This document shows positions 18,272 to 42,088 of a DNA stretch of 64,000 nucleotides, one piece after another (the first letter of the stretch is position 1; each line of letters begins with the position of its first letter). The position numbers were made by a program, and so were the translations under genes. The notes beneath the pieces are model-generated. The model saw nothing but the letters and a program-made list of their open reading frames with translations. It was not told where the DNA came from and did no database searches. The DNA comes from Betaproteobacteria bacterium (GTDB lineage Bacteria > Pseudomonadota > Gammaproteobacteria > Burkholderiales > SG8-41). The stretch covers positions 1,717 through 65,716 of the forward strand of contig JBKDUF010000046.1 in assembly GCA_046339595.1 (NCBI GenBank), in the 5' to 3' direction.

Positions 18272-18370
18272 AAAATCAATTAACAGGATATGCAGGATGG
18301 GCAGGATCAAGAACAGGAATTAATCATCGCGCATTGTTTTATCCTGAATATCCTGTCCATCCTGTTAATT
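18272..18370. repeat. CAGGAT-array palindromic element, copy a (glcD|glcE spacer)
   Basis: Left arm: AAAATCAATTAA-CAGGAT-atg-CAGGAT-ggg-CAGGAT-caagaa-CAGGAA. Right arm: TTTT-ATCCTG-aat-ATCCTG-tcc-ATCCTG-TTAATT. Confidence 0.85.
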
Positions 18371-18396
18371 AGTTTCTTGTCTTCTGTGTGGCTTTA

Positions 18397-19455
18397 ATGC
18401 CAGATTTTATTCATCAACTGTCCGACACCATCAGCGCCGCCGCCGACGCCAGGCGCCCGCTGGCCATCCGCGGCAGCGGCAGCAAGGCCTTCTATGGCCA
18501 TGCCGTCAATGGCGAGGCGCTGGATGTCACCGGCCACCGCGGCATCATCAGCTACGAGCCCACGGAACTGGTGATCACCGCACGCACCGGCACGCCGCTC
18601 GCGGAAATAGAAGCGGTGATGCGCGGGCAGGGCCAGATGCTCGGCTTCGAACCGCCGCAATTTGATGGCGGCGGCACGCTGGGCGGCTGCATCGCCGCCG
18701 GTCTTTCCGGCCCGCGCCGTGCCGCAGCCGGTTCCGCGCGGGACTTCGTGCTCGGTCTGCGCTTGCTCGACGGCCGCGGCACGGATCTTTCCTTCGGCGG
18801 CCAGGTCATGAAAAACGTCGCGGGCTATGACGTGTCGCGCCTGATCGCCGGTTCGCTGGGCACGCTGGGCGTGATCCTTGAGGTCTCGCTGAAGGTTCTG
18901 CCGCTGCCGCCGGCAGAGCTGACCCTGGTGCAGGAGCATAGCCAGGCCGACGCGCTGCGGCTGATGAACGAATGGGCCGGCAGGCCGCTGCCGATTACCG
19001 CCACCTGCCATGCCGACGGCAAGCTTTATCTGCGCCTTGCCGGCGCGCAGGCTGCGGTCAAGGCCGCAGCCGCGACACTCGGCGGCGAAATGCTGGCTGA
19101 TGCGGAAACCTTCTGGCGCGAGCTGCGCGACCAGCGCCATGGATTTTTTGCCGGTGATACCCCGCTATGGCGCCTGTCGCTGCGTTCAACCACGGCAGAA
19201 CTCGCGCTGCCCGGTGCGCAGCTCGTTGAATGGGGCGGCGCGCTGCGCTGGCTGCGCAGCGATGCCGATGCCATGAGCATCCGCAAGGCCGCGCGCGCCG
19301 GCGAAGGCCACGCCACGCTGTTCCGCGGCGGCAAGCCCGGTACGCCCGTATTCCATCCACTGCCGGCGGCGCTGATGAAACTGCATAAACGGGTCAAGCA
19401 GGCGATGGACCCGGCGGGCATCCTGAACCCGGGCCGGATGTACCCGGAGCTGTAA
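18397..19455 (+). CDS. glcE: glycolate oxidase FAD-binding subunit GlcE
   Basis: ATG 18397 preferred over GTG 18388. Motifs LAIRGSGSKAFYG and VMKNVAGYDVSRL. 352 aa. Confidence 0.88.
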   Translation: MPDFIHQLSDTISAAADARRPLAIRGSGSKAFYGHAVNGEALDVTGHRGIISYEPTELVITARTGTPLAEIEAVMRGQGQMLGFEPPQFDGGGTLGGCIAAGLSGPRRAAAGSARDFVLGLRLLDGRGTDLSFGGQVMKNVAGYDVSRLIAGSLGTLGVILEVSLKVLPLPPAELTLVQEHSQADALRLMNEWAGRPLPITATCHADGKLYLRLAGAQAAVKAAAATLGGEMLADAETFWRELRDQRHGFFAGDTPLWRLSLRSTTAELALPGAQLVEWGGALRWLRSDADAMSIRKAARAGEGHATLFRGGKPGTPVFHPLPAALMKLHKRVKQAMDPAGILNPGRMYPEL

Positions 19456-19460
19456 AAGTT

Positions 19461-19553
19461 AAAAACATCAATTAACAGGATGGACAGGATAAAACCGCTG
19501 CCGCCGCGAACATGATTGTTTTTATCCTGTCCATCCTGTCCATCCTGTAAATT
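19461..19553. repeat. CAGGAT-array palindromic element, copy b (glcE|glcF spacer)
   Basis: Left arm: AAAAACATCAATTAA-CAGGAT-gga-CAGGAT-AAAACC. Right arm: TTTTT-ATCCTG-tcc-ATCCTG-tcc-ATCCTG-TAAATT. Confidence 0.85.
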
Positions 19554-19560
19554 TCTTTTA

Positions 19561-20796
19561 ATGCAAACTACCCTCGCCGACTTCATCAAGGACACGCCAC
19601 AGGGCCGCGAGGCCGAGGCCATCCTGCGCAAGTGCGTGCATTGCGGCTTCTGCACCGCGACCTGCCCGACCTACCAGCTGCTCGGCGACGAGCTGGACGG
19701 GCCGCGCGGCCGCATTTACCTGATGAAGCAGGTGCTCGAAGGCGCGCCGGCCACCGAGAAAACCCGACTCCACCTCGACCGCTGCCTGACCTGCCGCTCC
19801 TGCGAGACCACCTGCCCCTCCGGCGTGCACTACAGCCGGCTGCTCGACATTGGCCGTGCCGTGGTGGCCCAACAGGTGCCGCGCCGCGGCTTCGAGCAAC
19901 TGCAGCGGCAAGCGCTCGCCGCAGTGATTCCGAAACCTGCGATTTTCAATCCGCTGCTCGCAGCCGGACGCATCGCGCGCAACCTGCTGCCCAAGGTGCT
20001 TGACGATGTGGTGCCGGAAGCACCGGCACGCGCGCGGCCGTGGCCGGTGGCCGGTCACGCGCGGCGCATGCTGGTGCTGGAAGGCTGCGTGCAGCCGGCG
20101 CTGTCACCCGCGACCAATGCCGCTGCCGCGCGCGTGCTCGACCGGCTCGGCATTTCACTGATCCGCGCCGCGAATGCCGGCTGCTGCGGCGCGGTGGCCT
20201 TCCACCTCGACCAGCAGGCGCAAGCGCTCGATGCGATGCGGCGCAATGTCGATGCCTGGTGGCCGCACGTCGAACAGGGCGTCGAGGCGGTGGTGTTCAC
20301 TGCTTCCGGCTGCGGCACGATGGTCACCGACTACGGCCACGCGCTGGCGCATGACCCCGCCTATGCCGAGCGCGCAAAGCGGCTGTCGGCGCTGGCAGTG
20401 GATCTGAGCACTGTCGTCGAAAGAGAAAAAAGCCAATTAAAACAATTGCTTATAAATAAAGCCCCAGCGGAAACCCAGGTTTTCCACCCGCCCTGCTCGC
20501 TGCAGCACGGCCTCAAGCTGAAGGGCCGCGTTGAGGCGCTGCTGACTGAACTGGGCTTCAAGCTCGCGCCGGTGGAAAACGCGCACCTGTGCTGCGGCTC
20601 GGCCGGCACTTATTCGATATTGCAGCCGGAAATTTCGGCGCAGCTGAAAGCCAACAAGATCCGGGCACTCACCGCGCAGTCGCCGCAACAGATCCTCACC
20701 GCCAACATCGGCTGCCAGACCCATCTGCAGTCGGCCGTGCAAATGCCGGTGCGGCACTGGATCGAGTTCATCGACGACCTGCTGTCGGCCGTTTAA
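19561..20796 (+). CDS. glcF: glycolate oxidase iron-sulfur subunit GlcF
   Basis: ORF trimmed to ATG 19561 (MQTTLADFIK). Two 4Fe-4S motifs, CVHCGFCTATCP and CLTCRSCETTCP, plus CCG repeats (AGCCGA, HLCCGSAG). Confidence 0.9.
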   Translation: MQTTLADFIKDTPQGREAEAILRKCVHCGFCTATCPTYQLLGDELDGPRGRIYLMKQVLEGAPATEKTRLHLDRCLTCRSCETTCPSGVHYSRLLDIGRAVVAQQVPRRGFEQLQRQALAAVIPKPAIFNPLLAAGRIARNLLPKVLDDVVPEAPARARPWPVAGHARRMLVLEGCVQPALSPATNAAAARVLDRLGISLIRAANAGCCGAVAFHLDQQAQALDAMRRNVDAWWPHVEQGVEAVVFTASGCGTMVTDYGHALAHDPAYAERAKRLSALAVDLSTVVEREKSQLKQLLINKAPAETQVFHPPCSLQHGLKLKGRVEALLTELGFKLAPVENAHLCCGSAGTYSILQPEISAQLKANKIRALTAQSPQQILTANIGCQTHLQSAVQMPVRHWIEFIDDLLSAV

Positions 20797-20841
20797 GCCA
20801 TGTCATTGCGGCGCATGCCGGAATGAGGGCCCAATTTTTCC

Positions 20842-20942
20842 CTTGTACTTTTTGTGACAGAGGCGTACCTTCCGATGCCGTACGCGGAAACGCCCGGTCC
20901 TCCACGATTGAAACACTTGTACTTTTCGTGACAGGGGCGTAC
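20842..20942 (+). repeat. two 27-bp direct repeats (25/27 identical) with 74-bp period upstream of the methyltransferase gene
   Basis: CTTGTACTTTTTGTGACAGAGGCGTAC (20842-20868) and CTTGTACTTTTCGTGACAGGGGCGTAC (20916-20942). Each repeat begins and ends with GTAC. A fifth GTAC lies at 20880-20883. Confidence 0.8.
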
Positions 20943-20976
20943 TCTCCGCGCCATTCGACCCGGGGAGGAGCCTCAA

Positions 20977-22206
20977 ATGGCTGCAGTCGCATCCGTCACC
21001 GCCTACGATCTCGCAGTCACCGCACCCGCAGCACGCCGCACACGCGCCGCACCGCCTCGACGCATCGACGGCGTGCCGGTCTACGAACAGGAGTTCTGGA
21101 CCAGCAAGCAGCGCCAGGCCAACCCGCTGCATGAGGTCTCGTATCGCGGCTGCTTCAAGCCGCAGTTGCCGGCCTACTTCATCGACCGCCTGAGCAAGCC
21201 CGGCGATCTCATCCATGACCCGTTCAGCGGCCGCGGCACCACCGCGGTGGAAGCGGCGCTGATGGGACGAAACGTCGCCGCCAACGACATCAACCCGCTG
21301 TCGCAAATCCTGACCCTGCCGCGGCTGGAAGTGCCGCTGATCGCCAGCATCGACGTGCGGTTGCGCGCGATCAAGGTGTCGGCGAAGCTGAAAAACGACA
21401 TCGACCTGTCGATGTTCTACCACCCGGACACCGAACGCGAGCTGCTCAACCTGCGTGCCTGGCTGCACCAGCGGCGCGACAGCGGCGCCGAGGATGCCGC
21501 CGACCGCTGGATCCGCATGGTCGCCACCAACCGGCTGACCGGGCATTCGCCGGGTTTTTTCTCGGCCTACACGCTGCCACCCAACCAGGCGGTGTCGCCG
21601 GAAAGCCAGATCCGCATCAACGAAAAAACCGGCAAGGCCCCGGAATACCGCGATGTGCGCGCGCTGATCCTGAGAAAGTCGATGCAGCTGCAGAGCGACA
21701 TCAACGCCGCGGCACGCTGGCGCCTGCAGCAGGCTGCGCAGCGCGCGCAGTTCATGGAGGGCGCTGCGGGCGCAACCTCCACGCTGGCCGACAACAGCGT
21801 GCAGCTTACCGTGACCTCGCCGCCCTTCCTCAACGTGGTGCAGTACACGAAGGACAACTGGATGCGCTGCTGGTTCAACGGCCTGGATGCCGAGGCCATC
21901 AGCGACGGCATCACCATGGCGACCAGCGTCAACGAATGGTCCGAGGTCATGCTCGGGGTGCTGGAAGAGCTGCACCGGGTCACTCGTCCCAAGGGCTGGG
22001 TCGCCTTCGAGGTCGGTGAGGTGCAGCGCGGCTCCGTCAACCTCGACGAGGCGGTGGTGCCGGTCGCGCGCGAGGCCGGCTTCAGGGTCGAAGCGATCCT
22101 GATCAACACTCAGAAGTTCACCAAGACCTCGAACATCTGGGGCATCGGCAACAACGCGCAGGGCACCAACAGCAACCGCATCGTGATGCTGCAGAAACCG
22201 GCCTGA
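20977..22206 (+). CDS. DNA methyltransferase (N4-cytosine or N6-adenine class), apparently orphan
   Basis: 409 aa. AdoMet motif I-like LIHDPFSGRGTTAVEAALMGR (about residue 80) and catalytic motif IV VTSPPFLNVV (about residue 275). SD GGGGAGGAG before the ATG. No nuclease-like neighbour. Confidence 0.85.
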   Translation: MAAVASVTAYDLAVTAPAARRTRAAPPRRIDGVPVYEQEFWTSKQRQANPLHEVSYRGCFKPQLPAYFIDRLSKPGDLIHDPFSGRGTTAVEAALMGRNVAANDINPLSQILTLPRLEVPLIASIDVRLRAIKVSAKLKNDIDLSMFYHPDTERELLNLRAWLHQRRDSGAEDAADRWIRMVATNRLTGHSPGFFSAYTLPPNQAVSPESQIRINEKTGKAPEYRDVRALILRKSMQLQSDINAAARWRLQQAAQRAQFMEGAAGATSTLADNSVQLTVTSPPFLNVVQYTKDNWMRCWFNGLDAEAISDGITMATSVNEWSEVMLGVLEELHRVTRPKGWVAFEVGEVQRGSVNLDEAVVPVAREAGFRVEAILINTQKFTKTSNIWGIGNNAQGTNSNRIVMLQKPA

Positions 22207-22271
22207 CTGGTTTCTCGCCTGCGGCGGCGCCGGTTACACTGGCGCCACCGTCAACACTGGAGGACTTCGCC

Positions 22272-22667
22272 ATGTTCGATGCCGTCTCCATCCCCTTCGG
22301 CGCGCGCATGCTGTTCAACACCGTGAAGCTCAAGCCCGGCGTCAGCTTCGAGGACGTCGAACTCGCGCTGGGAGAAATGTGCAACGTGGTCAAGAACACC
22401 TACGGCGGCGACAAGGGCGGCTTCATCGCCGGCCAGGTGTTCCGCTTCTCGGGGTTCGTCTCCGAGCAGGGCTCGCTCAGCCCGGGCGGCGGCGCCGGCG
22501 ACCATGTCGCGATCGTCACCTACTGGCGCTCCTTTGAGGAGCACGAACGCTCCCACGCCGACCAGGTGTTCAACGAGAAATTTGCCGCCCTCGCCGCGCT
22601 GTGCTCGGGCAGCGAGGAACTCGGCTACGAGATGCTCTGGCAGGGCGAGTCGAACCCGGGATACTGA
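22272..22667 (+). CDS. hypothetical protein (small alpha/beta, possibly ABM/Dabb-like)
   Basis: 131-aa ORF with SD TGGAGGA and GC3-rich codon usage like its neighbours. ...VAIVTYWRSFEEHERSH... resembles ABM-fold proteins, but the assignment is weak. Confidence 0.5.
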   Translation: MFDAVSIPFGARMLFNTVKLKPGVSFEDVELALGEMCNVVKNTYGGDKGGFIAGQVFRFSGFVSEQGSLSPGGGAGDHVAIVTYWRSFEEHERSHADQVFNEKFAALAALCSGSEELGYEMLWQGESNPGY

Positions 22668-22703
22668 AATACGGACGCAAGACACCGCGCCGCGACCCGC
22701 AGA

Positions 22704-23681
22704 TCACTCGGTGACAATTTTCGCCGCCTTGACGATCTGGTTGTATTTCTCCAGTTCGGACTTGATCAGTTTGCCGAATTCCTCCGGCGTGCCGCCCGCG
22801 GGCTCCAGCCCCTGCTGTGCCAGCGCCTCGGTCATGCCGGGCAGGCCCAGCGTCTTCAGGATGTCCTGATTGAGCTTGCGCACGATCACCGGCGAGGTTT
22901 TTGCCGGCGCCAGCACGCCCTGCCAGTTCGACACATTGAAGCCCTTGACGCCGGACTCGGCGATGGTGGGCACGTCCGGCGCAGCGGCGGCGCGTCTGGC
23001 CGTGGTCACCGCGATCGCGCGCAGCTTGCCCGCCTTCACCTGCGGCAGTACCGGCGGCATGGTGCTGAAAATGAGCTGGACGCGGCCGCTGACCAGGTCA
23101 GCCATTGCCGGGCCGGTGCCCTTGTACGGCACATGCAGCAGGTCGGTGGCAGTGGCGTGCTTGAAGAGCTCACCCGCCATGTGCAGCGATGAACCGGTGC
23201 CGGCCGAGGCATAGGTCAGCTTGCCGGGGCTCGCTTTCGCCATCGAGACCAGGTCCTGCACCGTCTTCACCGGCAGCGAAGGATGCACCGCCAGCATGAA
23301 GGAGGACACTGCCACCAGCGCCGCCGGTGCGAAATCGCGCAGCGGCTGGTACGGCAGGTCCGCCTTCAGCGCCGGGGTCTGCGCGAGATTGCCGACGCTG
23401 CCGAGAAACAGGGTGTAGCCGTCAGGATTGGCCTGCGCGGCGATGGTGGCACCCAGCGCGCCGCCGGCGCCACCGCGGTTGTCCACCACCACCTGCTGCG
23501 CCACCACTTCCGACAGGCGCTGGCCGAGGGTGCGCGCGAGGATGTCGTTGCCGCCACCCGGCGGAAACGGCACCACCAGTCGCAGGGCCTTGTTGGGATA
23601 GCCGGCTGCAGCGCCTTGCGCAATGGCGGCCGGTGCAGCAAGCGCGGCCAGCACGGCGGCGCCAATCAGGGTGGGTTTCAA
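22704..23681 (-). CDS. Bug/TctC-family substrate-binding protein
   Basis: 325 aa. Signal peptide ...AAPAAIAQGAA. Motifs YPNKALRLVVPFPPGGGNDI, HVPYKGTGPAMADLVSG and KAGKLRAIAVT. Confidence 0.9.
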   Translation of the reverse strand: MKPTLIGAAVLAALAAPAAIAQGAAAGYPNKALRLVVPFPPGGGNDILARTLGQRLSEVVAQQVVVDNRGGAGGALGATIAAQANPDGYTLFLGSVGNLAQTPALKADLPYQPLRDFAPAALVAVSSFMLAVHPSLPVKTVQDLVSMAKASPGKLTYASAGTGSSLHMAGELFKHATATDLLHVPYKGTGPAMADLVSGRVQLIFSTMPPVLPQVKAGKLRAIAVTTARRAAAAPDVPTIAESGVKGFNVSNWQGVLAPAKTSPVIVRKLNQDILKTLGLPGMTEALAQQGLEPAGGTPEEFGKLIKSELEKYNQIVKAAKIVTE

Positions 23682-23804
23682 GCGGTTCTCCTCGTCGAAG
23701 CGGCGCTATGGGCGGCGCCGGGGCGGGCATTGTAGGTGCGCCGGCAAAGGGTGGGCAAGCCGGCCAAACACAGCCTGGCAGCGGGCGCGCAGAAACGGCG
23801 GCGG

Positions 23805-24671
23805 TCAGAGCGTGAATGCCATCAGGTCCTCGCCCCAGATCACTTCACCGCCGAATGCGGCACGGATCTCCGCCAGCAGACGCTGCGGCCGGTCACCGCC
23901 GTCGATCCAGGGGCCATGGTGGGTGGTGACCAGGGTCTTGACGCCGGCCTCCCGCGCAAGCGCAGCCGCAAAGCGCGGGCCGGCAAGGCCGCCCGGATGG
24001 TTCGCCTCGAAGGCAAAGGCATTGAGGTAATGCACCAGCAGGTCGGCGCCCCGCGCCAGTTCCAGCAGCGCGGGCGGCGCGCCGCCGGGACGGGCGAGAT
24101 TGACGTCGCTGGTATAGACGAAGGCCTTGCCGCCGGCCTCGACACGGTAGGCAAAACTGTCGAGATAGGGCTGGTAATGCGGCACCTCGCAACGCAGGAT
24201 GCGCCAACCCGCGAACTCGAGCACTCCTTCACCTGAGAGCTCGGTGACCCGGGTGTCAGGCCAGGGCCGTGGTGGCGTGCCGCCCCGCTCGCGGTAGGCA
24301 CCAACGCTGAGCGGATGCTGCGTGCGTGACACCAGGTCACGGCTGAACGCGCCCTGCGGACCGAACACGCGGTCGATGAATTCCTGCGTGCCGGGCGGAC
24401 CGAAGATGCGCAGCGGCGGTGTCGCGTCGCCGCTCGCATCCCAGCGGTGATGGAAGAGCCGGATCAGGTCGGCGCAATGGTCAAAATGCAGGTGACTCAG
24501 GAAGACGTGCGTGACATCCGTCGAGTACCGCCCGGCCTGCATCAGGCGCAGGAAGGCGCCGGGGCCGTGGTCGATCAACACCCTGTCCTCCCCGGTCTCG
24601 ACCAGATAACTGGACGAGGCCCTTTTAAGCGACGGCAGCGGACTGCCGGTGCCGAGCAGCGTGACCTTCAC
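23805..24671 (-). CDS. MBL-fold metallo-hydrolase
   Basis: ORF trimmed to GTG 24671 (VKVTLLGTGSPLP), overlapping the PrpD-like stop in GTGA. HxHxDH motif VFLSHLHFDHCADL. Confidence 0.85.
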   Translation of the reverse strand: MKVTLLGTGSPLPSLKRASSSYLVETGEDRVLIDHGPGAFLRLMQAGRYSTDVTHVFLSHLHFDHCADLIRLFHHRWDASGDATPPLRIFGPPGTQEFIDRVFGPQGAFSRDLVSRTQHPLSVGAYRERGGTPPRPWPDTRVTELSGEGVLEFAGWRILRCEVPHYQPYLDSFAYRVEAGGKAFVYTSDVNLARPGGAPPALLELARGADLLVHYLNAFAFEANHPGGLAGPRFAAALAREAGVKTLVTTHHGPWIDGGDRPQRLLAEIRAAFGGEVIWGEDLMAFTL

Positions 24672-26014
24672 GGCGCAGCCGCGCGCGCGATGGTGCCGGC
24701 ATCGGGCAGGTGCTCCACATCCCAGCACAGGCGAATCACCTCGTCCGCCTGCCGGTCATCAAGAATGCCTTCTGCAAGTCCGCGGAACTTGGCTTCGAGA
24801 TCGGCATCACTCATGGGCCGCTCCAGCGTGCCCAGTGCATGCACAACATGACGCTCAAGAACGCGGCCGTCCCTGGTGCGGATGGAGATGTGCGACTGCA
24901 CGCGGCCGATCGACTCGTCGCGCTCGATGCGCACCCTGCGGCGCAGCGCCACGGTCACCGGATCGAGCACGCTGGCGTCGCTGAACTGCGCCTCGCCGGC
25001 CTTGCCGGTGTGCAGCGCAACGGCAGCGGCATGGAACACGCTGAACTTGCCTTCCAGCCCCGTCTGCGGATTCTCCTTGGCGGTCAGCTCGAACACGATT
25101 GGGCTGACCCTGAGATCCACCGACTCGATCATCTCCGGTTTCAGCCCCTGCTCATTGCGGAGCTGGATGCAGCCATCAATGGTGCCCTGCACCACCAGAC
25201 CGCAGGCATAGGGTTTGTACATGTTCTGCGACAGCTCCCAGCTTCTACCCCAATCCGCTGTGATGATGGAGGGATCGAATTTGGTCGACATCACATGGCC
25301 GAAGCCGCGCTTGGCCTCGATGCCTTGCTCGGAGCTGGTGAAGTTTTTTTCAGCCATCAGTGCAGCGGCCAGACCGCCCTGTGCGGCGCGTCCGGGATGC
25401 AGGCTCTTGCACATCGAGCCAAACATCTCGCGCAGGCCCGAGGACTGCGTCGCAGCAATGCCCAGGGCCCAGGCCATCTGCTGTTCGTTGAGCCCCAGCA
25501 GCTTGCCCGCGGCGGCGGCGGCGCCGAAAACGCCGGCGGTACCAGTGATATGCCAGCCGATCATGTAATGCTCGGGGAACACCGACAGGCCGATGCGGCA
25601 TTCGGCCTCGACACCCAGCACGAAGGCGTGCACCAGATCGGCACCACTGATCTTTTTCCATTCCGCCAGCGCCAGTATTGCCGGATACACCGGCGCACTG
25701 GGATGGATCGCGCGGGCATGGGTGTCATCGAAATCGAAGACATGCGAGGCCACGCCGTTTGCCAGTGCCGCATGCAGGCAGTCGGTGCGTTCGCGGCGAC
25801 CGAGTATCTGCGCCTGCGGCACCCCGGCGAACGGCAGCAGGGCCGCCAGCAGGTTGTCCACGGTCTCGTGGCGGGAGGCGCCGATCGCGCAGCCGCACCA
25901 GTTGAGCAGCGCGCGCGCGGCCTCATGGCGCACATCGGCAGACACCTCCTCCCGACGCGAAGCGACGAGCCGGCGTGCCAGCCAGCGGGTGACATCCGCG
26001 GAGTCGTCAGCCAT
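24668..26014 (-). CDS. MmgE/PrpD-family protein (2-methylcitrate dehydratase-like)
   Basis: 448 aa. ALANGVASHVFDFDDTH and GWHITGTAGVFGAAAAAGKLLGL are typical of the PrpD family. Confidence 0.88.
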   Translation of the reverse strand: MADDSADVTRWLARRLVASRREEVSADVRHEAARALLNWCGCAIGASRHETVDNLLAALLPFAGVPQAQILGRRERTDCLHAALANGVASHVFDFDDTHARAIHPSAPVYPAILALAEWKKISGADLVHAFVLGVEAECRIGLSVFPEHYMIGWHITGTAGVFGAAAAAGKLLGLNEQQMAWALGIAATQSSGLREMFGSMCKSLHPGRAAQGGLAAALMAEKNFTSSEQGIEAKRGFGHVMSTKFDPSIITADWGRSWELSQNMYKPYACGLVVQGTIDGCIQLRNEQGLKPEMIESVDLRVSPIVFELTAKENPQTGLEGKFSVFHAAAVALHTGKAGEAQFSDASVLDPVTVALRRRVRIERDESIGRVQSHISIRTRDGRVLERHVVHALGTLERPMSDADLEAKFRGLAEGILDDRQADEVIRLCWDVEHLPDAGTIARAAAP

Positions 26015-27000: not shown

Positions 27001-27099
27001 GGGCGTGGTCCTGGATTGAAATGCCGCGAAAAACACTCGCACAAAAACCACAACAACAGCGAAATGAAGCGCAGTTCCGGACGGCAGACTCGCGGCGGT

Positions 27100-33454: not shown

Positions 33455-34074
33455 AGCTCTACTGGTCGTCGCGATCGCCCTTCGTGCGCAAGGTGATGGT
33501 GTTCGCCCATGAATGCGGCCTCGCATCGCAGCTGAAGCTCGAGCGCACCCCGGTGGCGATGAACAATCCCAACCGCGGACTGCTCAAAACCAATCCCACT
33601 GGCAAGATCCCGACGCTGGAGCTTGATGATGGCAGCGTGTTGTACGACTCGACGGTGATCTGCGAATACCTCGACAGCGTTCAGCAGGGGCCGCGGCTGT
33701 TTCCGGCCGCGGGCCAGGCGCGCTGGACTGCGCTGCGCCGCCATGCCCTGGGCAACAACCTCACCGACAACCTGATGCTGTGGCGCAATGAACTGTTGCG
33801 CCCTGCCGCGCAGCAGTCGCCGGAAATACTCGCCGCCTTCGAGCTGAAAGTGCGCAATGCCCTCGACGTGCTCGAATCGGAAGCCGGGGCGCTGGCACGG
33901 GACGCACGTACCCAGTTGACGATTGGCCCTATCGCCATTGCGGTGGCGCTGAGTTATATCGATTTCCGTTTTGCCGCGCTCGGCTGGCGCGAAGGCCATG
34001 ACCAGCTCGCAAACTGGTATGCGGAATACTCGCAACGGCCGGCCATGCGCGAAACCGCTTTTGTCGATCAATAA
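33451..34074 (+). CDS. glutathione S-transferase
   Basis: GTG 33451 (VKLYWSSRSPFVRKV...). KIPTLELDDGSVLYDSTVICEYL is a GST N-terminal thioredoxin-fold motif. 207 aa. Confidence 0.82.
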   Translation: MKLYWSSRSPFVRKVMVFAHECGLASQLKLERTPVAMNNPNRGLLKTNPTGKIPTLELDDGSVLYDSTVICEYLDSVQQGPRLFPAAGQARWTALRRHALGNNLTDNLMLWRNELLRPAAQQSPEILAAFELKVRNALDVLESEAGALARDARTQLTIGPIAIAVALSYIDFRFAALGWREGHDQLANWYAEYSQRPAMRETAFVDQ

Positions 34075-34132
34075 ACCGGTCAGCAATACAGAATTAACCA
34101 AAACAAGCAGTACTGAGACTGAGGAGAACGCC

Positions 34133-35101: not shown

Positions 35102-35110
35102 AGGACTTTT

Positions 35111-35206
35111 ATTTACAGGATGGACAGGATGTTCAGGATAAAAACCAAAATTCCTGATGCGATTGATTCCGCCTTTATCCTGCAAATCCTGCCCATCCTG
35201 TTAATT
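35111..35206. repeat. CAGGAT-array palindromic element, copy c
   Basis: Left arm: ATTTA-CAGGAT-gga-CAGGAT-gtt-CAGGAT-AAAAACC. Right arm: CTTT-ATCCTG-caa-ATCCTG-ccc-ATCCTG-TTAATT. Confidence 0.85.
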
Positions 35207-35228
35207 GCCTTTTGATTTGATTGAATCC

Positions 35229-37364
35229 ATGACCACCCTGCCCGGCACCGCCCCCGACCTCTCCCGTCTGCTTGATCCACGCGGCGTCGCCATCATCGGC
35301 GCCTCGACTGACCTCGCCCGCATCGGAGGCCAGCCGATCCGGCTGCTCACCGAATACGGCTATGCCGGCCAGGTCTATCCGGTGAATCCGAAATACACCG
35401 AGATCAAGGGCCTGAAGTGTTATCCCGACGTGTCGGCGGTGCCGCAGCCCTGCGACGTCGCGCTGATCGCGGTGTCGGGACCGCTGGTGCCGGGCGCCAT
35501 CGAGCAATGCGGCAAGGCCGGCATTCCCTTCGCCGTGGTGCTCTCCGCCGGTTTCAGCGAAGCCGGTGAAGCCGGCAAGGCACTCAACGACCAGCTGCTC
35601 GCCGCGATCAACAAGAGCGGTGTGCGCGTGGTCGGCCCGAACTGCCTGGGCGTACTCAACCTCGACGCCAATTTCCGCCTCGGCTTCGGCGGCACGCTGC
35701 AGCTGAAGACGCTGAAGCCCGGCCCGATCGCGATGGTCACCCAGTCCGGCGGCTTCGGTTTCGGCGTGGTCGCCGTCGGCTGCTATTACGGCCTGGGATT
35801 CAATCACGTGGTCTCCACCGGCAACGAGGCCGACCTCACCGCACTCGACTGGATGGAGTACCTGATCGAGCGCCCGGATGTCGAAATCCTCACCGCCTTT
35901 CTCGAAGGCACCACCGAAGGCCGGCGCCTGCGCCGGCTCGGCGCACGCGCCCTCGAGCTCGGCAAGCCGATCCTGATCTGGAAAGTCGGCAATTCCGAAA
36001 TCGGCAGCAAGGCCGCGACCTCGCACACCGCGCGGCTTACCGCCGGCTACGAACTGTTCCGCACCGCCTTCCGCGAAGGCGGGTTCATTGAAGTGCAGGA
36101 CGTCGACGATCTGGTCGATTACTGCAAGGCCTTCCGCATGAACAAGCTGCCGAAAGGCCCGGGGGTGGGCGTAATGACGCTGTCCGGTGGCGCGGGCGTG
36201 CTGCTCGCCGACCGCTGCCACGCGCGCGGCCTGACCCTGCCGCGGCTGTCCGACAGGACGCGCGAAACGCTGCGCGGCATTGTCGTCGCCTACGCCTCGA
36301 TCGAGAACCCGATCGACACCACCGCGCAGGGCTACAACGACAACTTCGCCTCGTACACCAAGACCATGCGCGAAGTGCTGGCTGATCCCAACATTGACGC
36401 CATTGTCGCGCGCTCCCCGCGCGGGGCGGTCGCCATGGCCTGGGCCGAGGGCCTGATCGAAATGCTCAAAGGCGTGGACAAGCCCCTGCTGCTGAACTGG
36501 CCGACCTCGCCCGATGACAACCGCGCTGCGATGGATTACCTCGAGAACCACGGCGTGCCATGCATGCTGGCCCCGGGGCGCACCGTCGATGCGCTGGCCG
36601 CATTGAACGACTTCGCCAACAAGAAGCGCGACTTTGAAGCCGCACGCGCCCGCGGCGGCAAGCGCCTGATCGAGAAACAGCCGCTCCAACTGAAGGGTTC
36701 AGGCACGCTGGGCGAACACGCATCCAAAGACATCCTGAAGGCCTACGGCATCCCGGTCACCGGCGAAACCCTGCTCAGTGCAGCAGCCGTCGAGCAACTC
36801 AAGGCTGCGCCGTTGCCCTTCCCGCTGGCGGTGAAAATCGAATCCGCCGACATCCCGCACAAGACCGAGGCCGGCGTGATCCGCCTCAACATCACCACCC
36901 TCGACGGACTGAAACAGGCGGCGCGCGAAGTACACGCCGCGGCTGCGGCCTACAACAAGGACGCCCGCATCGCCGGCATTCTGGTGCAGCAGATGGCCAG
37001 CGGCGAGGAAGTCATCGTCGGCGCGGTCAACGATCCGCACTTCGGCCCGGTGATCGCGGCCGGCCTCGGCGGCGTGTTCACCGAGATCATGCACGACGTG
37101 ACCCACCGCTACGCACCCTTCGACGTCGAAACCGCGAAGGCGATGATCCACGAGATCAAGGGTGTCAAGCTGCTGCAGGGTTACCGCGGCAAACCGGCCT
37201 GCAATATCGACGCGCTGGCCGAGGCCATTTCGCGGCTGTCGCTGCTTGCCGCCGACCACCAGGACCGTATCGCCGAGATTGACGTAAACCCGCTGTTCGT
37301 CAATGCCGAGGGCGTGGTGGCTGCGGATGCGTTGATTGTGCTTAACAACCAATTTACAGGATAG
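35229..37364 (+). CDS. ADP-forming (NDP-forming) acyl-CoA synthetase, fused alpha/beta type
   Basis: ATG 35229 (MTTLPGTAPDLSRLLDPRGVAIIGAS...). CoA-binding N-terminus, VTQSGGFG, and an ATP-grasp C-terminal half (FPLAVKIESADIPHKTEAGV). The last four codons and the TAG lie inside repeat copy d. Confidence 0.88.
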   Translation: MTTLPGTAPDLSRLLDPRGVAIIGASTDLARIGGQPIRLLTEYGYAGQVYPVNPKYTEIKGLKCYPDVSAVPQPCDVALIAVSGPLVPGAIEQCGKAGIPFAVVLSAGFSEAGEAGKALNDQLLAAINKSGVRVVGPNCLGVLNLDANFRLGFGGTLQLKTLKPGPIAMVTQSGGFGFGVVAVGCYYGLGFNHVVSTGNEADLTALDWMEYLIERPDVEILTAFLEGTTEGRRLRRLGARALELGKPILIWKVGNSEIGSKAATSHTARLTAGYELFRTAFREGGFIEVQDVDDLVDYCKAFRMNKLPKGPGVGVMTLSGGAGVLLADRCHARGLTLPRLSDRTRETLRGIVVAYASIENPIDTTAQGYNDNFASYTKTMREVLADPNIDAIVARSPRGAVAMAWAEGLIEMLKGVDKPLLLNWPTSPDDNRAAMDYLENHGVPCMLAPGRTVDALAALNDFANKKRDFEAARARGGKRLIEKQPLQLKGSGTLGEHASKDILKAYGIPVTGETLLSAAAVEQLKAAPLPFPLAVKIESADIPHKTEAGVIRLNITTLDGLKQAAREVHAAAAAYNKDARIAGILVQQMASGEEVIVGAVNDPHFGPVIAAGLGGVFTEIMHDVTHRYAPFDVETAKAMIHEIKGVKLLQGYRGKPACNIDALAEAISRLSLLAADHQDRIAEIDVNPLFVNAEGVVAADALIVLNNQFTG

Positions 37365-37449
37365 TCAGGATTTACAGGATTAAAACCCATGGCTCATAGG
37401 CGTATCGAAATCGGCTTTTATCCTGAACATCTTGTCCATCCTGTTAATT
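37351..37449. repeat. CAGGAT-array palindromic element, copy d
   Basis: Left arm: AATTTA-CAGGAT-agt-CAGGAT-tta-CAGGAT-TAAAACC. Right arm: CTTTT-ATCCTG-aac-ATCTTG-tcc-ATCCTG-TTAATT. Confidence 0.85.
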
Positions 37450-37462
37450 AAAAAAATTTTTC

Positions 37463-38461
37463 ATGACTACTCCATTCAAAACCCGCATCACCGAGCTCTA
37501 CGGCATCCGCCTGCCGGTCGTTGCCAGCGGCCTGATGTGGCTGGCCGATCCGGTCTATGTCGCGGCAGTGGCACGCGCCGGTCTGATCGGATTCATGACC
37601 GCGGCGAGTTTTCCCAATGTGCAAGCGCTGCGCGAAGGCATCCGCCGCTGCCGCGAACTTAGTGAAGGCAAGCCCTTCGGCGTCAACATCATGATCCGCG
37701 TCAGCCGCGACGGCACGGACCGCGTCAATCCGCTGATTGACGCCGTGATCGAGGAAGGCGTGAAGTTCGTCGAGACTGCGGGCAACAACCCCGAGGCGTA
37801 CATCCGGCGGATGAAGGACGCTGGCATCACCGTGCTGCACAAGGTGCCCGGCGTGCTGCGCTACGTAAAAAAGGCCGAATCGCTCGGTGCCGATGCGGTG
37901 ACCGTGATCGGCTCTGAAGCCGGTGGCCATCCTGGCATCGAACCCGTGGGCAGCATGGTCGCAGGTGCGGCCGCGGCGCGCGCAGTGAAGATTCCGGTCA
38001 TCCTCGCCGGCGGTATCGGCACCGGCGAACAGCTGGTCGCAGCACTGGCGCTGGGCGCTGATGGCGTGGCCATGGGCACGCGTTTCCTGGTCGCCGAGGA
38101 AATCTGGGCGCACCGCCAGTACAAGGAGCGCCTCGTTGCCGCCGCCGAAACCGACACCACGCTGCTGCTGCAAAGCATGCGCAACACCCAGCGTGCACTG
38201 AAAACGCCGCATGTGGCGATGATCCAGCAGCTGGAAAAGGCGGAGCCCGTGGACACCGCGGCGATCCTGCCGCACATCATGGGCACCGTCGGCCGCAAGG
38301 CCTACGAGACCGGCGACGTCGAGAAGGCGATGCTGTCCTGCGGCCAGGGCGTGGTCTTCGCCGATAGAATCGAACCGCTGGCCGCGATCGTCGATCGCAT
38401 CGAGGCCGAGGCCCGCGCCGCGATGTCACGCCTGCAGTCCATCTGCGGCAAGAGTGCATGA
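37463..38461 (+). CDS. nitronate monooxygenase / NPD-family FMN oxidoreductase
   Basis: 332 aa. LYGIRLPVVASGLMW and ILAGGIGTGEQLVAALALGADGVAMGTRF. Confidence 0.88.
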   Translation: MTTPFKTRITELYGIRLPVVASGLMWLADPVYVAAVARAGLIGFMTAASFPNVQALREGIRRCRELSEGKPFGVNIMIRVSRDGTDRVNPLIDAVIEEGVKFVETAGNNPEAYIRRMKDAGITVLHKVPGVLRYVKKAESLGADAVTVIGSEAGGHPGIEPVGSMVAGAAAARAVKIPVILAGGIGTGEQLVAALALGADGVAMGTRFLVAEEIWAHRQYKERLVAAAETDTTLLLQSMRNTQRALKTPHVAMIQQLEKAEPVDTAAILPHIMGTVGRKAYETGDVEKAMLSCGQGVVFADRIEPLAAIVDRIEAEARAAMSRLQSICGKSA

Positions 38462-38479
38462 GTTTCCGGAGGAGATCCC

Positions 38480-39442
38480 ATGAAAAATTATAAGTATATG
38501 ATTTTATTGACTTTTATTTTTGGCGTGGGCGCTGCGCAGGCCCAACCCTTTCCGAACAAGGCCGTGCGTCTGGTGGTGCCCTTCGCTGCTGGCGGCAGCA
38601 CCGACGTCATCGCGCGCATTCTGGCACCGAGAATGGCTGAAGCCTGGGGCCAGCAGGTCATTGTTGACAACCGCCCCGGCGGTAACACCACCATTGGCAC
38701 CGAAATCGTCGCCCGCGCCGCACCCGACGGCCACACGCTGCTGGTCACCCCGGCACCGTTCACCGTGGTGCCAAGCGTGATGACCAAGCTGCCCTATGAC
38801 CCGGTGAAGGATTTCGAGCCGATCCTGCTCATCAACACCACGCCGATGGGCCTGGTAGTGCATCCCGGCGTGCCGGCGAAAAACATGAACGAACTGATCG
38901 CACTGGCGAAAAAGCGCCCCGGCCAGATGAATTTCGGCTCCTCCGGCAACGGCGGCGTGCCACACCTCTCCGGCGAACTGCTCAACACTATGGCCGGACT
39001 GAAAATCCTTCACGTGCCGTACAAGGGCAATGCCCCGGCGCTGGCCGACCTCGTCGGCGGCCATGTCGACATGGTCTTCAACGGCCTGACCTCGGTGATT
39101 CCGCTGATCCGCGCCAACCGCGTGCGCGTGCTCGGCGTCACCAGCCTCGCCCGCACCGCGGCGCTACCCGACGTGCCCACGCTCGACGAACAGGGCCTCA
39201 AGGGTTTCCAGGCAGTGGCCTGGAATGGGCTCAGCGCACCGGCGCGCACGCCGAAGGAAGCCATCGTGCGCATCCAGGAAACCACTGCGCGCATCGTGCG
39301 CTCGCCCGAACTCGCCGAGCAGTTGAAGCGCGACGGCTCCGATCCGGTGGGCAGCTCCACCGCCGAGTTCCAGAACCACCTGCGCGACGAGGTAGTCAAA
39401 TGGAAACGCGTGCTCGACCGTGCAGGCATCAAATCCTTCTGA
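38480..39442 (+). CDS. Bug/TctC-family substrate-binding protein
   Basis: SD GGAGGAGA. Signal peptide ...GVGAAQAQ. Motifs FPNKAVRLVVPFAAGGSTDV and HVPYKGNAPALADLVGG. Confidence 0.9.
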   Translation: MKNYKYMILLTFIFGVGAAQAQPFPNKAVRLVVPFAAGGSTDVIARILAPRMAEAWGQQVIVDNRPGGNTTIGTEIVARAAPDGHTLLVTPAPFTVVPSVMTKLPYDPVKDFEPILLINTTPMGLVVHPGVPAKNMNELIALAKKRPGQMNFGSSGNGGVPHLSGELLNTMAGLKILHVPYKGNAPALADLVGGHVDMVFNGLTSVIPLIRANRVRVLGVTSLARTAALPDVPTLDEQGLKGFQAVAWNGLSAPARTPKEAIVRIQETTARIVRSPELAEQLKRDGSDPVGSSTAEFQNHLRDEVVKWKRVLDRAGIKSF

Positions 39443-39466
39443 ATGCCTTCTGAACGGACACCGGCC

Positions 39467-40237
39467 ATGAGCGTCACTGTCACCCATGCCGACGGCATCG
39501 CCACCGTCACCCTTAACCGCCCCGACAAGCTCAATGCCCTGTCCGCGGACATGTACGAGGAACTCGCCCGCGTGTTCGGCGAGCTCAATCTCGACGATGC
39601 CGTGCGCGTGGTTCTGCTCACCGGCGCGGGGAAGGCCTTCTGCGCCGGCGGCGATGTCGGCTCGATGGGCAGCTACGATATCGTCAGTGGCCGCAAGCGC
39701 TCCAAGGGCCACCACCGCATGGTGCTGGCGCTGCACCACCTCGAGAAGCCGGTGATCGCAGCGGTGCGCGGCCCTGCCGCCGGCATCGGCGCCAGCCTGG
39801 CACTGGCCAGCGACCTCATCGTGGCCAGCGACACCGCCTACCTGCTGATGGCTTTCAAGAATGTCGGCATCCCGCCTGATGGCGGTGCGATCTATTTCCT
39901 GACCCAGCACCTGGGCCTCGCCCGCGCCAAGGAGATTGTCTACAGCGCCCGCAAGCTACCCGCAGCCGAGGCGAAGGATATGGGACTGGTGAGCAAGCTC
40001 GTGCCTGATGACCAGCTCGAGGCCGAGGCACTGGCTCTGGCACAGGAAATCGCCGATTCCGCGACCTACGCGCTGACGCTGGCCAAACGCATGTTCCAGT
40101 ACATGTACAGCCCGACGCTGGAACAGCTGCTGGAAATGGAAGTGCTGGCCATCTGCGGCGCGCGCATGACCCATGACCATGTCGAGGGCGTCACCGCGTT
40201 CAAGGAAAAACGCAAACCGCAGTTCAAGGGTAAATAA
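39467..40237 (+). CDS. enoyl-CoA hydratase/isomerase (crotonase family)
   Basis: ATG 39467 (MSVTVTHADGIATVTLNRPDKLNAL). The oxyanion-hole region is LLTGAGKAFCAGGD. Confidence 0.88.
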   Translation: MSVTVTHADGIATVTLNRPDKLNALSADMYEELARVFGELNLDDAVRVVLLTGAGKAFCAGGDVGSMGSYDIVSGRKRSKGHHRMVLALHHLEKPVIAAVRGPAAGIGASLALASDLIVASDTAYLLMAFKNVGIPPDGGAIYFLTQHLGLARAKEIVYSARKLPAAEAKDMGLVSKLVPDDQLEAEALALAQEIADSATYALTLAKRMFQYMYSPTLEQLLEMEVLAICGARMTHDHVEGVTAFKEKRKPQFKGK

Positions 40238-40243
40238 AAACGG

Positions 40244-40337
40244 AATTAACAGGATGGACAGGATATTCAGGATGAAAACCACAACCTCACGACCGCCCAA
40301 GGGTTTTATCCTGCACATCCTGTCCATCCTGTAAATT
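40244..40337. repeat. CAGGAT-array palindromic element, copy e
   Basis: Left arm: AATTAA-CAGGAT-gga-CAGGAT-att-CAGGAT-GAAAACC. Right arm: GGTTTT-ATCCTG-cac-ATCCTG-tcc-ATCCTG-TAAATT. Confidence 0.85.
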
Positions 40338-40351
40338 GGATTTTTTTAGTG

Positions 40352-41992
40352 ATGCCTCGCAGCACACCGGAGTGGAAGGCACAGACGCTTGCAGAAGCGC
40401 TGGCGGCGACGGCCCACGCCCACCCGCAGCAGGAAGCCCTGGTCATCGGCAGCCGCCGCCTGACCTGGGCCGAACTGCGCGACAACGTGCGCGAGGTCGC
40501 CCGCGGCCTGCGCTCGCTGGGTATCAACCGCGGCGACCATGTCGCGGTATGCATGGGCAACTCGCCGGAATGGGCCATCTTTTTCTATGCCGCGGCCAGC
40601 ATCGGCGCGGTGACGGTTCCGGTCAACACCCGCTTCAAGGCCGACGAGATGGCGTACTGCCTGAAGCAGGCCGACGTGAAGCTGCTGTTCATCGCCGACC
40701 GTTTCCTGAAAATCGACTTCATCGCCATGCTGCGCGCCATCTGTCCCGGCATTGACCGCAGCCTGCCCGATCCCGCGCTGCCGCTGCTGGGCAGCGTGGT
40801 GGTGCTGGGCGAGGACGTGCCTGCCGCCACCCTGCCCTTCGCCGGGCTCTTGGCACGAAGCGCGGCCTTCGACAAACGCATCCCGCCGGAAGTGCATCCC
40901 GGCGACCCGCTGCTGATGCAGTTCACTTCGGGCACCACCTCGTACCCGAAGGGCGTGATGCTCAGCCACGACAACATGCTGCGTAACGCCCGTTACGTAG
41001 CGGCGCGCTTCCACCTCAATGCCGGCGACCGTTACTACAGCGCACGGCCCTGGTACCACGTTGCCGGCACCACGCTGTCGATGCTCGCCGCGCTCACCAC
41101 TGGCGCCTGCCTGGTGTCCTCGCCCCATTTCGACGCCGGCGAAGCGCTGATGGCGATGTGGAGGGAGGAATGCAGCCACACTTCGGGCAACGACACCATG
41201 TTCCTGATGATGCTCAATCATCCGGACTTCAGAAAGTATGCGCTGAAACTGCGTCACGGCTGGGTATCCTGCGGACCCGAGGTCTCGCGCCGCGTGGTCG
41301 ATGAAATGGGCATGACCGGCCTGGTGCAGGCTTACGGCCTGTCGGAAGCCTCGCCCAATGTGTGCATGTCGCATTACGACGATGACCTTGAGAAACGCAT
41401 CAACGGCTGGGCGCACCTTCTCGATGAGGTCGAAGTGCGCCTCGTCGATGCCGAAACCGGTGCCGTGCAGCCGCCGGGCAAGACCGGCGAAATCCAGGTC
41501 CGCGGCTGGAGCGTGATGCAGGGTTATTACAAGATGCCGGAACAGACCGCGAAAACCATCGACGCAAAGGGCTGGCTGCATACCGGCGACCTCGGCGTGA
41601 TGGACGGGGACGGACGGCTCAAATTCATCACCCGCATCAAGGACGTGTTCCGTGTCGGCGGCGAAAACGTCGCGCCGGCTGAGGTCGAGGACGTGCTGCA
41701 CAAACATCCCGGGATCAAGCAGGCCCAGGTCATCGGTGTGCCCGACCCGAGGCTGGTCGAAGTGCCGGCGGCCTACGTGATCCTGAAGGACGGCGCATCC
41801 GCCACGCCGGAGGAACTGATGGCCTGGAGCAAGGAACGGCTGGCGAACTTCCGCGTGCCGCGTTACCTGAAAATCGTCGACAGCTTCGAGACCATCGGCA
41901 TGACCGGCAGTTCTAAGGTGCAGAAGAACAAGCTGCGCGCGCAGGCATTGATTGATTTTGGCCTGGAAGAACAAAGCAAATTAACAGGATAG
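40352..41992 (+). CDS. AMP-forming acyl-CoA synthetase/ligase (FadD-like)
   Basis: AMP-binding motif LMQFTSGTTSYPKGVMLSH, YGLSEASP and TGDLGVMDGDGRLKFITRIKD. The last four codons and the TAG lie inside repeat copy f. Confidence 0.9.
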   Translation: MPRSTPEWKAQTLAEALAATAHAHPQQEALVIGSRRLTWAELRDNVREVARGLRSLGINRGDHVAVCMGNSPEWAIFFYAAASIGAVTVPVNTRFKADEMAYCLKQADVKLLFIADRFLKIDFIAMLRAICPGIDRSLPDPALPLLGSVVVLGEDVPAATLPFAGLLARSAAFDKRIPPEVHPGDPLLMQFTSGTTSYPKGVMLSHDNMLRNARYVAARFHLNAGDRYYSARPWYHVAGTTLSMLAALTTGACLVSSPHFDAGEALMAMWREECSHTSGNDTMFLMMLNHPDFRKYALKLRHGWVSCGPEVSRRVVDEMGMTGLVQAYGLSEASPNVCMSHYDDDLEKRINGWAHLLDEVEVRLVDAETGAVQPPGKTGEIQVRGWSVMQGYYKMPEQTAKTIDAKGWLHTGDLGVMDGDGRLKFITRIKDVFRVGGENVAPAEVEDVLHKHPGIKQAQVIGVPDPRLVEVPAAYVILKDGASATPEELMAWSKERLANFRVPRYLKIVDSFETIGMTGSSKVQKNKLRAQALIDFGLEEQSKLTG

Positions 41993-42088
41993 ACAGGATG
42001 AGCAGGATAAAAACAGTTGGAACTTTGAAGCATCACGGAACCGACGTGACGGGGTTTTATCCTGACCATCCTGTCCATCCTGTAAATT
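41978..42088. repeat. CAGGAT-array palindromic element, copy f
   Basis: Left arm: AAATTAA-CAGGAT-aga-CAGGAT-gag-CAGGAT-AAAAAC. Right arm: GGTTTT-ATCCTG-acc-ATCCTG-tcc-ATCCTG-TAAATT. Confidence 0.85.

Follow-up and report, generated by a model that had tools for sequence, protein, structure and literature searches.

The window considered here is a stretch of 64,000 nt, analysed at its full length, from contig JBKDUF010000046.1 (assembly GCA_046339595.1) of a Betaproteobacteria bacterium. It contains six A+T-rich palindromes, each lying in a spacer between two genes, where a first-pass annotation made from the sequence alone had placed them. Each palindrome consists of two inverted arms, in which the hexamer CAGGAT (left) or ATCCTG (right) recurs at 9-bp steps, and a short core between them. 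Palindromes of the same design are found in many bacterial phyla, in archaea, and in phages, and some of them enclose a gene encoding a GxxExxY nuclease; it appears on balance that the window copies are gene-less members of this family. The six copies are as follows.

18273..18375, no strand: copy 1, in the glcD/glcE spacer
19470..19553, no strand: copy 2, in the glcE/glcF spacer; 2 left and 3 right hexamers
35111..35205, no strand: copy 3, in the spacer between a TctC-family receptor and an ADP-forming acyl-CoA synthetase
37351..37449, no strand: copy 4, in the spacer between the acyl-CoA synthetase and a nitronate monooxygenase (NMO)
40236..40345, no strand: copy 5, in the spacer between an enoyl-CoA hydratase (crotonase) and an AMP-binding ligase
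41979..42088, no strand: copy 6, in the spacer between the ligase and an alpha/beta-hydrolase; 3+3 hexamers and a core of 50 nt

A Pfam search of the neighbours returned glcD/E/F, TctC, ADP-forming acyl-CoA synthetase, NMO, crotonase, AMP-ligase, and hydrolase, in agreement with the names that the flanking genes had been given. Across the six copies there are 34 exact CAGGAT/ATCCTG hexamers and one variant, and no short-range inverted repeat elsewhere in the window is as long or as strong. Each arm comprises two to four ACAGGAT heptamers in 9-bp phase, with AATTAA on the outside and AAAAC on the inside, so the frame AATTWA-[CAGGAT-NNN]n-AAAAC...GTTTT-[ATCCTG-NNN]n-TWAATT had been read correctly. 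In copy 1, a core of 33 nt is enclosed by the left arm AAATCAATTAA-CAGGAT-ATG-CAGGAT-GGG-CAGGAT and the right arm ATCCTG-AAT-ATCCTG-TCC-ATCCTG-TTAATT; an inverted-repeat scan places its arms at 18273-18310 and 18338-18375 with 76% complementarity. The core of copy 2 is AAAACCGCTGCCGCCGCGAACATGATTGTTTTT. Copy 3 has 3+3 hexamers, a core of 37 nt, and arms that are 88% complementary. Copy 4 has three left hexamers and three right ones, of which two are exact and one is a variant (ATCTTG at 37429). Copy 5, also with 3+3 hexamers, is the longest inverted repeat of the window (82% complementary), and its 45-nt arms take in the outer segments AAAAACGGAATTAA and TAAATTGGATTTTT. In at least two cases, the element supplies the stop codon of the upstream gene: the first hexamer of copy 4 contains the TAG (37362-37364) that ends the open reading frame (ORF) of the ADP-forming acyl-CoA synthetase, and the AATTAA terminus of copy 6 includes the TAA of the ligase ORF (41990-41992).

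When up to one mismatch is allowed, CAGGATNNNCAGGAT has 24 matches in the window compared with 0.25 expected from dinucleotide shuffles (standard deviation 0.54; largest shuffle 2), and 23 of them fall inside the six copies. A generic inverted-array detector finds arm-array palindromes at period 9 only and none at periods 7, 8, 10, 11, or 12; in copies across loci, the step between hexamers is 9 bp in 451 of approx. 520 cases. Spacer nucleotides are 60% complementary between arms versus 42% after shuffling. In particular, among 38 distinct window-type relatives, the outer spacer, GGA/TCC, is complementary at 2.5 of 3 nt; the inner spacer is free in sequence and remains unpaired, with 0.9 of 3 nt complementary, which is about the chance level. 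Since the inner spacer pairs at chance and the spacers as a whole reach only 60% against 42%, the hexamer is constrained as a sequence and not just as one side of a stem. Moreover, the hexamers are invariant across phyla, which, together with the weakly pairing spacers, supports the earlier proposal that the hexamer and its 9-bp phase are under selection in themselves, beyond mere pairing. The window cores, which span 18-50 nt, have no likeness to each other beyond AAAAC/GTTTT, nor to other DNA of the window.

The design is not confined to the window. The exact two-arm pattern specifies 24 bases, for which less than one chance match is expected in 596 Gb (by the authors' own arithmetic), and it was found at at least 120 loci in contigs representing one genome per species; IMG/VR adds a further 17 loci. 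The bacterial hosts are Acidobacteriota (especially Pyrinomonadaceae), Verrucomicrobiota, Planctomycetota, Chloroflexota, Desulfobacterota, Bacteroidota, Gamma- and Betaproteobacteria, Chlamydiota, and Gemmatimonadota, and the archaeal hosts are Ca. Methanoperedens and Methanosarcinales. The host phages, both tailed and Mu-like, are genuine, with Mu transposase, GemA, and portal genes in one set and terminase, portal, and capsid genes in another. The arm of the window subfamily, AATTAACAGGATGGACAGGAT, is nearly identical to an arm from Pyrinomonadaceae and Geobacteraceae, AATTAACAGGGATGGACAGGAT. The palindromes were thus rightly taken for a real repeat family, and the possibility that these are the only copies, with no conservation elsewhere, does not hold; the family is cross-phylum and not lineage-specific. 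Sibling families share the layout and differ in the heptamer, which may be CACAGAG, CACAGAT, CACGGAG, CACGAAA, GCAAAGAG, AACGGAT, or CACGAAT. The CACAGAG type is widespread in its own right (35 viral loci).

Some relatives carry a gene between their arms. When metagenomes were scanned with a single arm, 127 arm matches were obtained, 79 of them with a partner array within 200 nt, and at approx. nine loci a left arm is followed by an ORF of 120-133 aa and then by a right arm. The enclosed ORFs belong to GxxExxY (TIGR04256, E 5e-42) and PDDEXK_3 (PF13366, E 4e-41), far above the family cut-offs (142.8 bits vs 35 and 140.4 bits vs 22, respectively). All 13 GxxExxY ORFs in the examined loci lie between inverted repeats, whose motif differs by lineage (CAGGAT, CGCAGATT, ACACGGAT, CCAGGA). 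Six loci fetched through the protein are flanked in the same way, namely L304 (CACGGA), L305 (CGCGAAAAG, with weak phasing), L306 (CACGAAA), L307, L316, and L326 (CAGGAT; L numbers denote loci outside the window). In total, approx. 15 distinct GxxExxY loci all lie between inverted repeats, and nearly all of these are visibly phased. The gene takes precisely the place of the core, with AAAAC on one side and GTTTT on the other, and no other recurrent cargo gene was found between arrays. Gene-carrying copies (L215, L307, L326) have the same arms as gene-less ones, which outnumber them by approx. 10:1, and one 666-kb contig (Ga0172367_10000002) has both forms with the same arms, L185 with the gene and L192 without it. 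At L326, the complete form lies between the stop codon of TctC and the start codon of an acyl-CoA dehydrogenase, a site of the same kind as that of copy 3. CAGGAT-type proteins are 56-85% identical among themselves and 37-58% identical to those of other types. One locus is available from three samples (L316, L317, L318), in which five, three, and one tandem gene-less units follow the GxxExxY gene; the annotated N-terminus of that gene (1501-1899), MDIQDIQDIQD, is read from the left arm. A weak Y1_Tnp (IS200/RAYT-like) ORF is present at 4483-4812 of L326, 5 kb from the gene-carrying element.

The enclosed protein has the features of a PD-(D/E)XK nuclease. Residues D72, E82, and K84, which correspond to the catalytic D...ExK, do not vary across 30 sequences. 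An AlphaFold2 model (pLDDT 84) has as its nearest solved folds only PD-(D/E)XK nucleases: Cas4 SSO0001, MGME1, lambda-exonuclease-like proteins, Hjc-type resolvases, and splicing endonucleases. A sequence search of the PDB with the nuclease gave no match, PADLOC gave none either, and PHROGs gave a weak match of unassigned function. With E <= 1e-3 as the limit, the GxxExxY family comprises 25,135 clusters (50% identity); with E <= 1e-10, it comprises 8,583. Approximately one tenth of its top representatives (e.g., P0241, P0243, P0246) are 250-295 aa long with two matched stretches, and such tandem two-domain fusions hint that the protein works as a dimer. PDDEXK_3/GxxExxY has been catalogued as 'Unknown, Prokaryota & Viruses, multiple transfers' (PMC3424549). 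In a literature search, the family was scarcely mentioned and never linked to repeats, and no prior description of the repeats or of the nuclease link was found.

Comparison of orthologous spacers, which the first-pass annotation had suggested as a check, revealed empty sites. The window comes from a metagenome-assembled genome of freshwater Burkholderiales type, and seven loci of relatives with DNA (L142-L148) were found via GlcE homologues. In the GlcDEF tree, the window, L142, and L146 (92-93% identical), joined by L143, form clade A; L144, L147, and L148 (approx. 90% identical) form clade B; and L145 is the outgroup. The spacers are occupied as follows.

Window: glcD/glcE, CAGGAT; glcE/glcF, CAGGAT
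L142: glcD/glcE, CACAGAG; glcE/glcF, CACAGAG
L144: glcD/glcE, CACAGAG; glcE/glcF, CACAGAG
L147: glcD/glcE, empty; glcE/glcF, CACAGAG
L148: glcD/glcE, empty; glcE/glcF, CAGGAT, with a core homologous to that of window copy 2
L143: glcD/glcE, empty; glcE/glcF, GGTGAT-type
L146: glcD/glcE, empty; glcE/glcF, empty
L145: glcD/glcE, empty; glcE/glcF, empty

The outer flanks are homologous across element types, and the pattern of filled and empty spacers is discordant with the GlcDEF tree. The N-terminus of GlcE (window 18397 onward; approx. 10001 in L142-L148) reads MxDFIxQ where the glcD/glcE spacer is filled and MSDxP..LA or MTDL where it is empty, from which it follows that the insertion replaced the start of glcE. 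The filled-spacer allele is common to clades A and B. Because the pattern departs from the tree and the GlcE N-terminus crosses clades, alleles have been exchanged by recombination and elements replaced in situ. Each sample of the window's clade has a single element type, and other phyla mix types on one contig.

These motif replacements bear on the idea that the arrays are binding sites of a host protein unrelated to mobility, such as a CsrA-type regulator, DnaA (9-mers), a repressor with its operator, or a Chi-like system; the palindromic layout would then be no more than a reflection of symmetric binding. In its favour, ACAGGAUG (ACA-GGA-UG) can be likened to the CsrA consensus, and the short phased sites to the operators of ribbon-helix-helix (RHH) proteins or response regulators. 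However, the motif type differs between genomes whose GlcDEF are 92-93% identical, for which a conserved host factor cannot account. The sibling families CACAGAG and CACGAAA lack GGA, the GGA motifs that do exist would be buried in the stem, the elements occur in archaea and phages, and the specific link to the GxxExxY gene would go unexplained. A host-protein origin is therefore considered highly improbable, and a CsrA sponge, DnaA boxes, and Chi-like sites were each rejected on these grounds (no GGA in siblings, presence in archaea and phages, buried GGA, motif swaps).

Further observations concern how the elements move. Copies from a Mu-like phage and from Pyrinomonadaceae have common cores, which shows that whole elements are copied. 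Compound elements nested within one another are seen at L002, L157, L035, and L052, and insertion at palindrome centres is common (L002, L157, L035). Of 154 elements examined for target-site duplication, 85 lack any flanking direct repeat and in 46 it is 1 nt long, a chance-like distribution; the reported lack of target-site duplication is thereby upheld. The statement that no transposase is present also stands for the window, where no GxxExxY ORF was seen either. Around the genomic loci (among at least 120), no neighbouring protein recurs, and the viral loci recur with phage structural genes only. A hairpin of approx. 25 nt (CACCCCTCAAGGGGGTATCAAG) lies inside the arms of some CACAGAG-type copies. 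It is present at 11062-11190 of L142 and at 11078-11200 and 16375-16540 of L144, in opposite arms in L142 and L144, and it is absent from the orthologous copy at 20655-20805 of L142. From its positions, this mini-hairpin appears to be a mobile insert that is smaller still, and the palindrome appears to have undergone an inversion of its interior.

Since same-armed relatives enclose the GxxExxY gene, the window copies are read as gene-less derivatives. It is somewhat probable that they are non-autonomous members, comparable to miniature transposable elements with inverted repeats (MITEs) or REPINs, of a family with nuclease-carrying full-length forms. The shared arms, the nuclease cargo, the two forms in one genome, the empty and filled sites, the nesting, and the spread across phyla and phages are direct observations; from these, we infer that the nuclease may mobilise the elements via the heptamer arrays. 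In the proposed mechanism, the heptamers would be the recognition sites of the cognate nuclease, which a gene-carrying copy at another place in the genome would provide in trans. The nuclease would cut the ends or the centre of an element, and host repair would copy or re-insert the palindrome with no duplication of the target; the new site would often be the middle of a resident palindrome or lie just past a stop codon. Cutting of this kind followed by host repair would account for the missing target duplication, the insertion at palindrome centres, and the scar-like cores. Gene-less copies would thus be acted upon in trans, following the logic of REPINs and RAYTs (PMC3116915).

Several points weigh against this proposal. 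The 64-kb window contains no GxxExxY gene, and no gene-carrying CACAGAG-type element was found among the examined loci and viral contigs (a search of viral contigs for CACAGAG or CAGGAT arrays at gene-sized spacing gave 0 matches). The window cores do not resemble the interiors of gene-carrying copies (z -1.0 to 1.6); a simple origin by internal deletion is therefore unsupported, and the cores were rejected as deletion remnants. The covariation of protein and motif comes from approx. 11 proteins whose identity ranges overlap slightly. The structural matches of the model are weak (E >= 3e-3) and would place the protein within PD-(D/E)XK at the superfamily level only. No small stand-alone PD-(D/E)XK nuclease is known to act as a transposase.

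The same data can be viewed from the opposite side. The palindromes might be primary, having arisen or spread in some other way, and the GxxExxY gene a secondary invader of homing type, whose product would recognise the symmetric heptamer arrays and cut the centre of an empty palindrome, the gene then being copied into it with the approx. 40-bp arms as homology; error-prone repair of such cuts would leave the variable window cores. This we regard as rather doubtful. A free-standing nuclease gene that lies between conserved genes is typical of homing elements. The presence or absence of the element together with a nuclease between conserved genes (TctC / GxxExxY / acyl-CoA dehydrogenase) conforms to this description, and the invariable position of the gene between AAAAC and GTTTT, the frequent insertion at palindrome centres, the unrelated, scar-like cores, and the tenfold excess of gene-less copies all agree with homing. 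However, homing does not explain how gene-less palindromes spread to new loci such as glcD/glcE, and no other recurrent mobilising gene is found nearby. It also predicts the same covariation of motif and protein as mobilisation by the nuclease, and the present data cannot separate the two.

The folding of transcripts has to be considered as well. RNA folding, proposed as a check by the first-pass annotation, did yield strong predicted hairpins on both strands (-29 to -50 kcal/mol; -40.1 kcal/mol for copy 1) and no bias towards the sense strand: the antisense strand folds better in five of the six window copies. In a gene-carrying copy, the arms pair in both the minimum-free-energy and the centroid structure, forming a stem that closes around the ORF (z -2.9). 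It could be supposed that the palindromes persist because, in the polycistronic mRNA, they serve the host as RNase III stems, 3'-end stabilisers, or partial terminators that adjust the relative output of adjacent cistrons, with the nuclease link being incidental. Stabilisers of the repetitive extragenic palindromic (REP) type and the RNase III sites of T7 are precedents for intergenic RNA stems. Copies outside the window lie a median of 22 nt past a stop codon, and elements are kept in the glcDEF operon of several lineages. Nevertheless, that such a role maintains the copies is judged quite unlikely. Pairing needs no invariant hexamer, the inner spacer pairs at chance, the sense strand has no advantage, and close relatives have empty spacers with abutting genes. 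Nor are the copies canonical terminators. None of the six was called in a scan for terminators and promoters, and their loops are 18-50 nt long, compared with 3-8 nt in an intrinsic terminator, which is defined by such a loop together with a G+C-rich stem and an adjacent U-tract. The likeness to a bidirectional terminator that had been suggested from A-rich left and T-rich right flanks thus fails in a simple terminator scan, and in the majority of other subfamilies the T-runs are upstream and the A-runs downstream. The restriction to spacers between co-directional plus-strand genes proved to be a property of the local sample of six, because copies elsewhere also lie between convergent and divergent genes: among the 110 classifiable copies outside the window, 59 are in co-directional, 29 in convergent, and 22 (approx. 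20%) in divergent gene pairs. Under the preferred reading of the copies as mobile elements, a transcribed copy would fold into an interrupted hairpin of approx. 30 bp in either orientation, which could act as an RNA-processing or stabilising stem. Such a side effect on host operons is plausible, and the hairpin would be a by-product and not the reason for the conservation of the hexamer.

The elements were compared with known systems and fit none of them in full; the first-pass annotation had likewise seen no match to REP/BIME, ERIC, or Correia-type elements. Rfam gave no match at the gathering threshold in the window or in 18 loci. The closest parallel is with REPINs and RAYTs, which are likewise short, non-coding palindromic doublets, dispersed between genes without target duplication, with a small nuclease gene flanked by the same inverted repeats. 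In both cases, the repeat sequence varies by lineage and the sites are long-lived (PMC3116915, PMC3337134), and the two inverted arms around an 18-50-nt core follow the doublet layout. In contrast, the flanked enzyme here is a PDDEXK_3/GxxExxY PD-(D/E)XK protein and not an HUH Y1 (IS200-like) transposase, the arms are 9-bp heptamer arrays without self-complementarity and with no GTAG/CGTC tag in any arm (as defined in PMC3733652), the gene lies inside the palindrome loop, and the motif is common to phyla, archaea, and phages. MITEs derived from insertion sequences (Correia/NEMIS, Nezha, MITEAba12) resemble the elements in being approx. 100 bp long, non-coding, and multicopy, with terminal inverted repeats and gene-carrying kin that share their ends. 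They differ in that the present elements have no target-site duplication, no known (DDE, HUH, serine, or tyrosine) transposase in the gene-carrying kin, internally repetitive inverted repeats, and unrelated cores in the window.

Other likenesses are looser. Foldback (FB)/Galileo elements are alike in architecture alone, with long inverted arms of short tandem sub-repeats around a variable middle (PMC3573991, PMC4079207); they are, however, eukaryotic, of kilobase scale, and mobilised by P- or MULE-type transposases, and the comparison implies no homology. The attC sites of integrons, which also lie between co-directional genes, are 60-140-bp imperfect palindromes whose ends are conserved and whose centre varies, and the AATTAAC/GTTAATT ends of the present elements match RYYYAAC/GTTRRRY at 6/7 positions. 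Yet the genes are fixed (glcE is in place where sites are empty), and most subfamilies have GAC/GTC instead of AAC/GTT. The attC reading was rejected, given a 6/7 core match in one subfamily, flanked genes that are fixed members of operons, and no integrase. Hairpins in mRNA and rRNA (E. coli REP stabilisers, T7 RNase III sites, and 23S rRNA intervening sequences) are similar as operon-internal stems with internal loops, and a 23S intervening sequence may, like the gene-carrying form, enclose a small ORF in its loop. These are, however, defined by structure and not by an invariant phased hexamer. Sigma-dependent pause sites, TA/TTAA targets of Tc1/piggyBac-like elements, and telomerase-like templated addition were also considered and dropped.

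The six copies are more interesting than the first-pass annotation stated, as the visible gene-less part of a broad, apparently undescribed class of nuclease-associated elements. A wider proposal is possible, although put forward at somewhat less than even confidence: the GxxExxY/PDDEXK_3 proteins (approx. 25,000 clusters) would be nucleases dedicated to a class of palindromic mobile elements that spans domains, has so far gone unrecognised, and has arrays of heptamers in 9-bp phase as its ends, each nuclease lineage reading its own heptamer, with gene-less copies as REPIN-like parasites. If the link holds, a nuclease family of unassigned function gains a testable role. If it is also mechanistic, the elements would constitute a second system like that of REPINs and RAYTs, independent of HUH enzymes and with a simple, lineage-variable recognition word. 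This would matter to the study of mobile DNA, and the protein might be of interest as a small scaffold for a sequence-specific nuclease. In annotation, the elements account for long A+T-rich operon spacers in uncultured soil and freshwater bacteria and in phages.

Individual hosts provide additional detail. The phage represented by L125 and L136 (IMGVR_UViG_3300044712_002254) is Mu-like (MuA, GemA, Mu portal) and has at least five complete and two half CAGGAT elements between its genes, with common cores. The sole match to copy 5 in a plasmid collection is L149 (1985-2090), on plasmid 2 of Gemmatirosa kalamazoonensis KBS708 (NZ_CP007130.1, at position approx. 812.6 kb); this element, from a cultured organism, has (GGACAGGAT)x5 as its left arm and a matching right arm. 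Other cultured carriers are Gemmata algarum JC673, Spirosoma telluris, Thiobaca trueperi DSM 13587, and Thioalkalivibrio denitrificans ALJD. In Ca. Methanoperedens BLZ2 (L070), a second repeat of approx. 90-110 bp (GAAATGTCTGATGAC...) abuts most CAGGAT copies, at 431-540, 3367-3425, 3995-4109, and 5432-5518. Copies or half copies of CAGGAT elements also adjoin an IS1634-family transposase gene (L070, 5540-6568) and an IS110-like gene (L236, after the arm at approx. 59). These genes were judged to be incidental neighbours, or else they may belong to insertion sequences that target the palindromes.

In the window, glcF is directly followed (20977-22206) by a gene for an N6/N4 DNA methyltransferase (PF01555) and then by a small ORF of approx. 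131 aa. The PF01555 gene looks like an orphan methyltransferase, with no restriction partner seen. The small ORF is present in most relatives, L147 and L148 excepted, and, with the sequence of L143 ending too early, the methyltransferase is kept after glcF in six of the seven (L142 and L144-L148).

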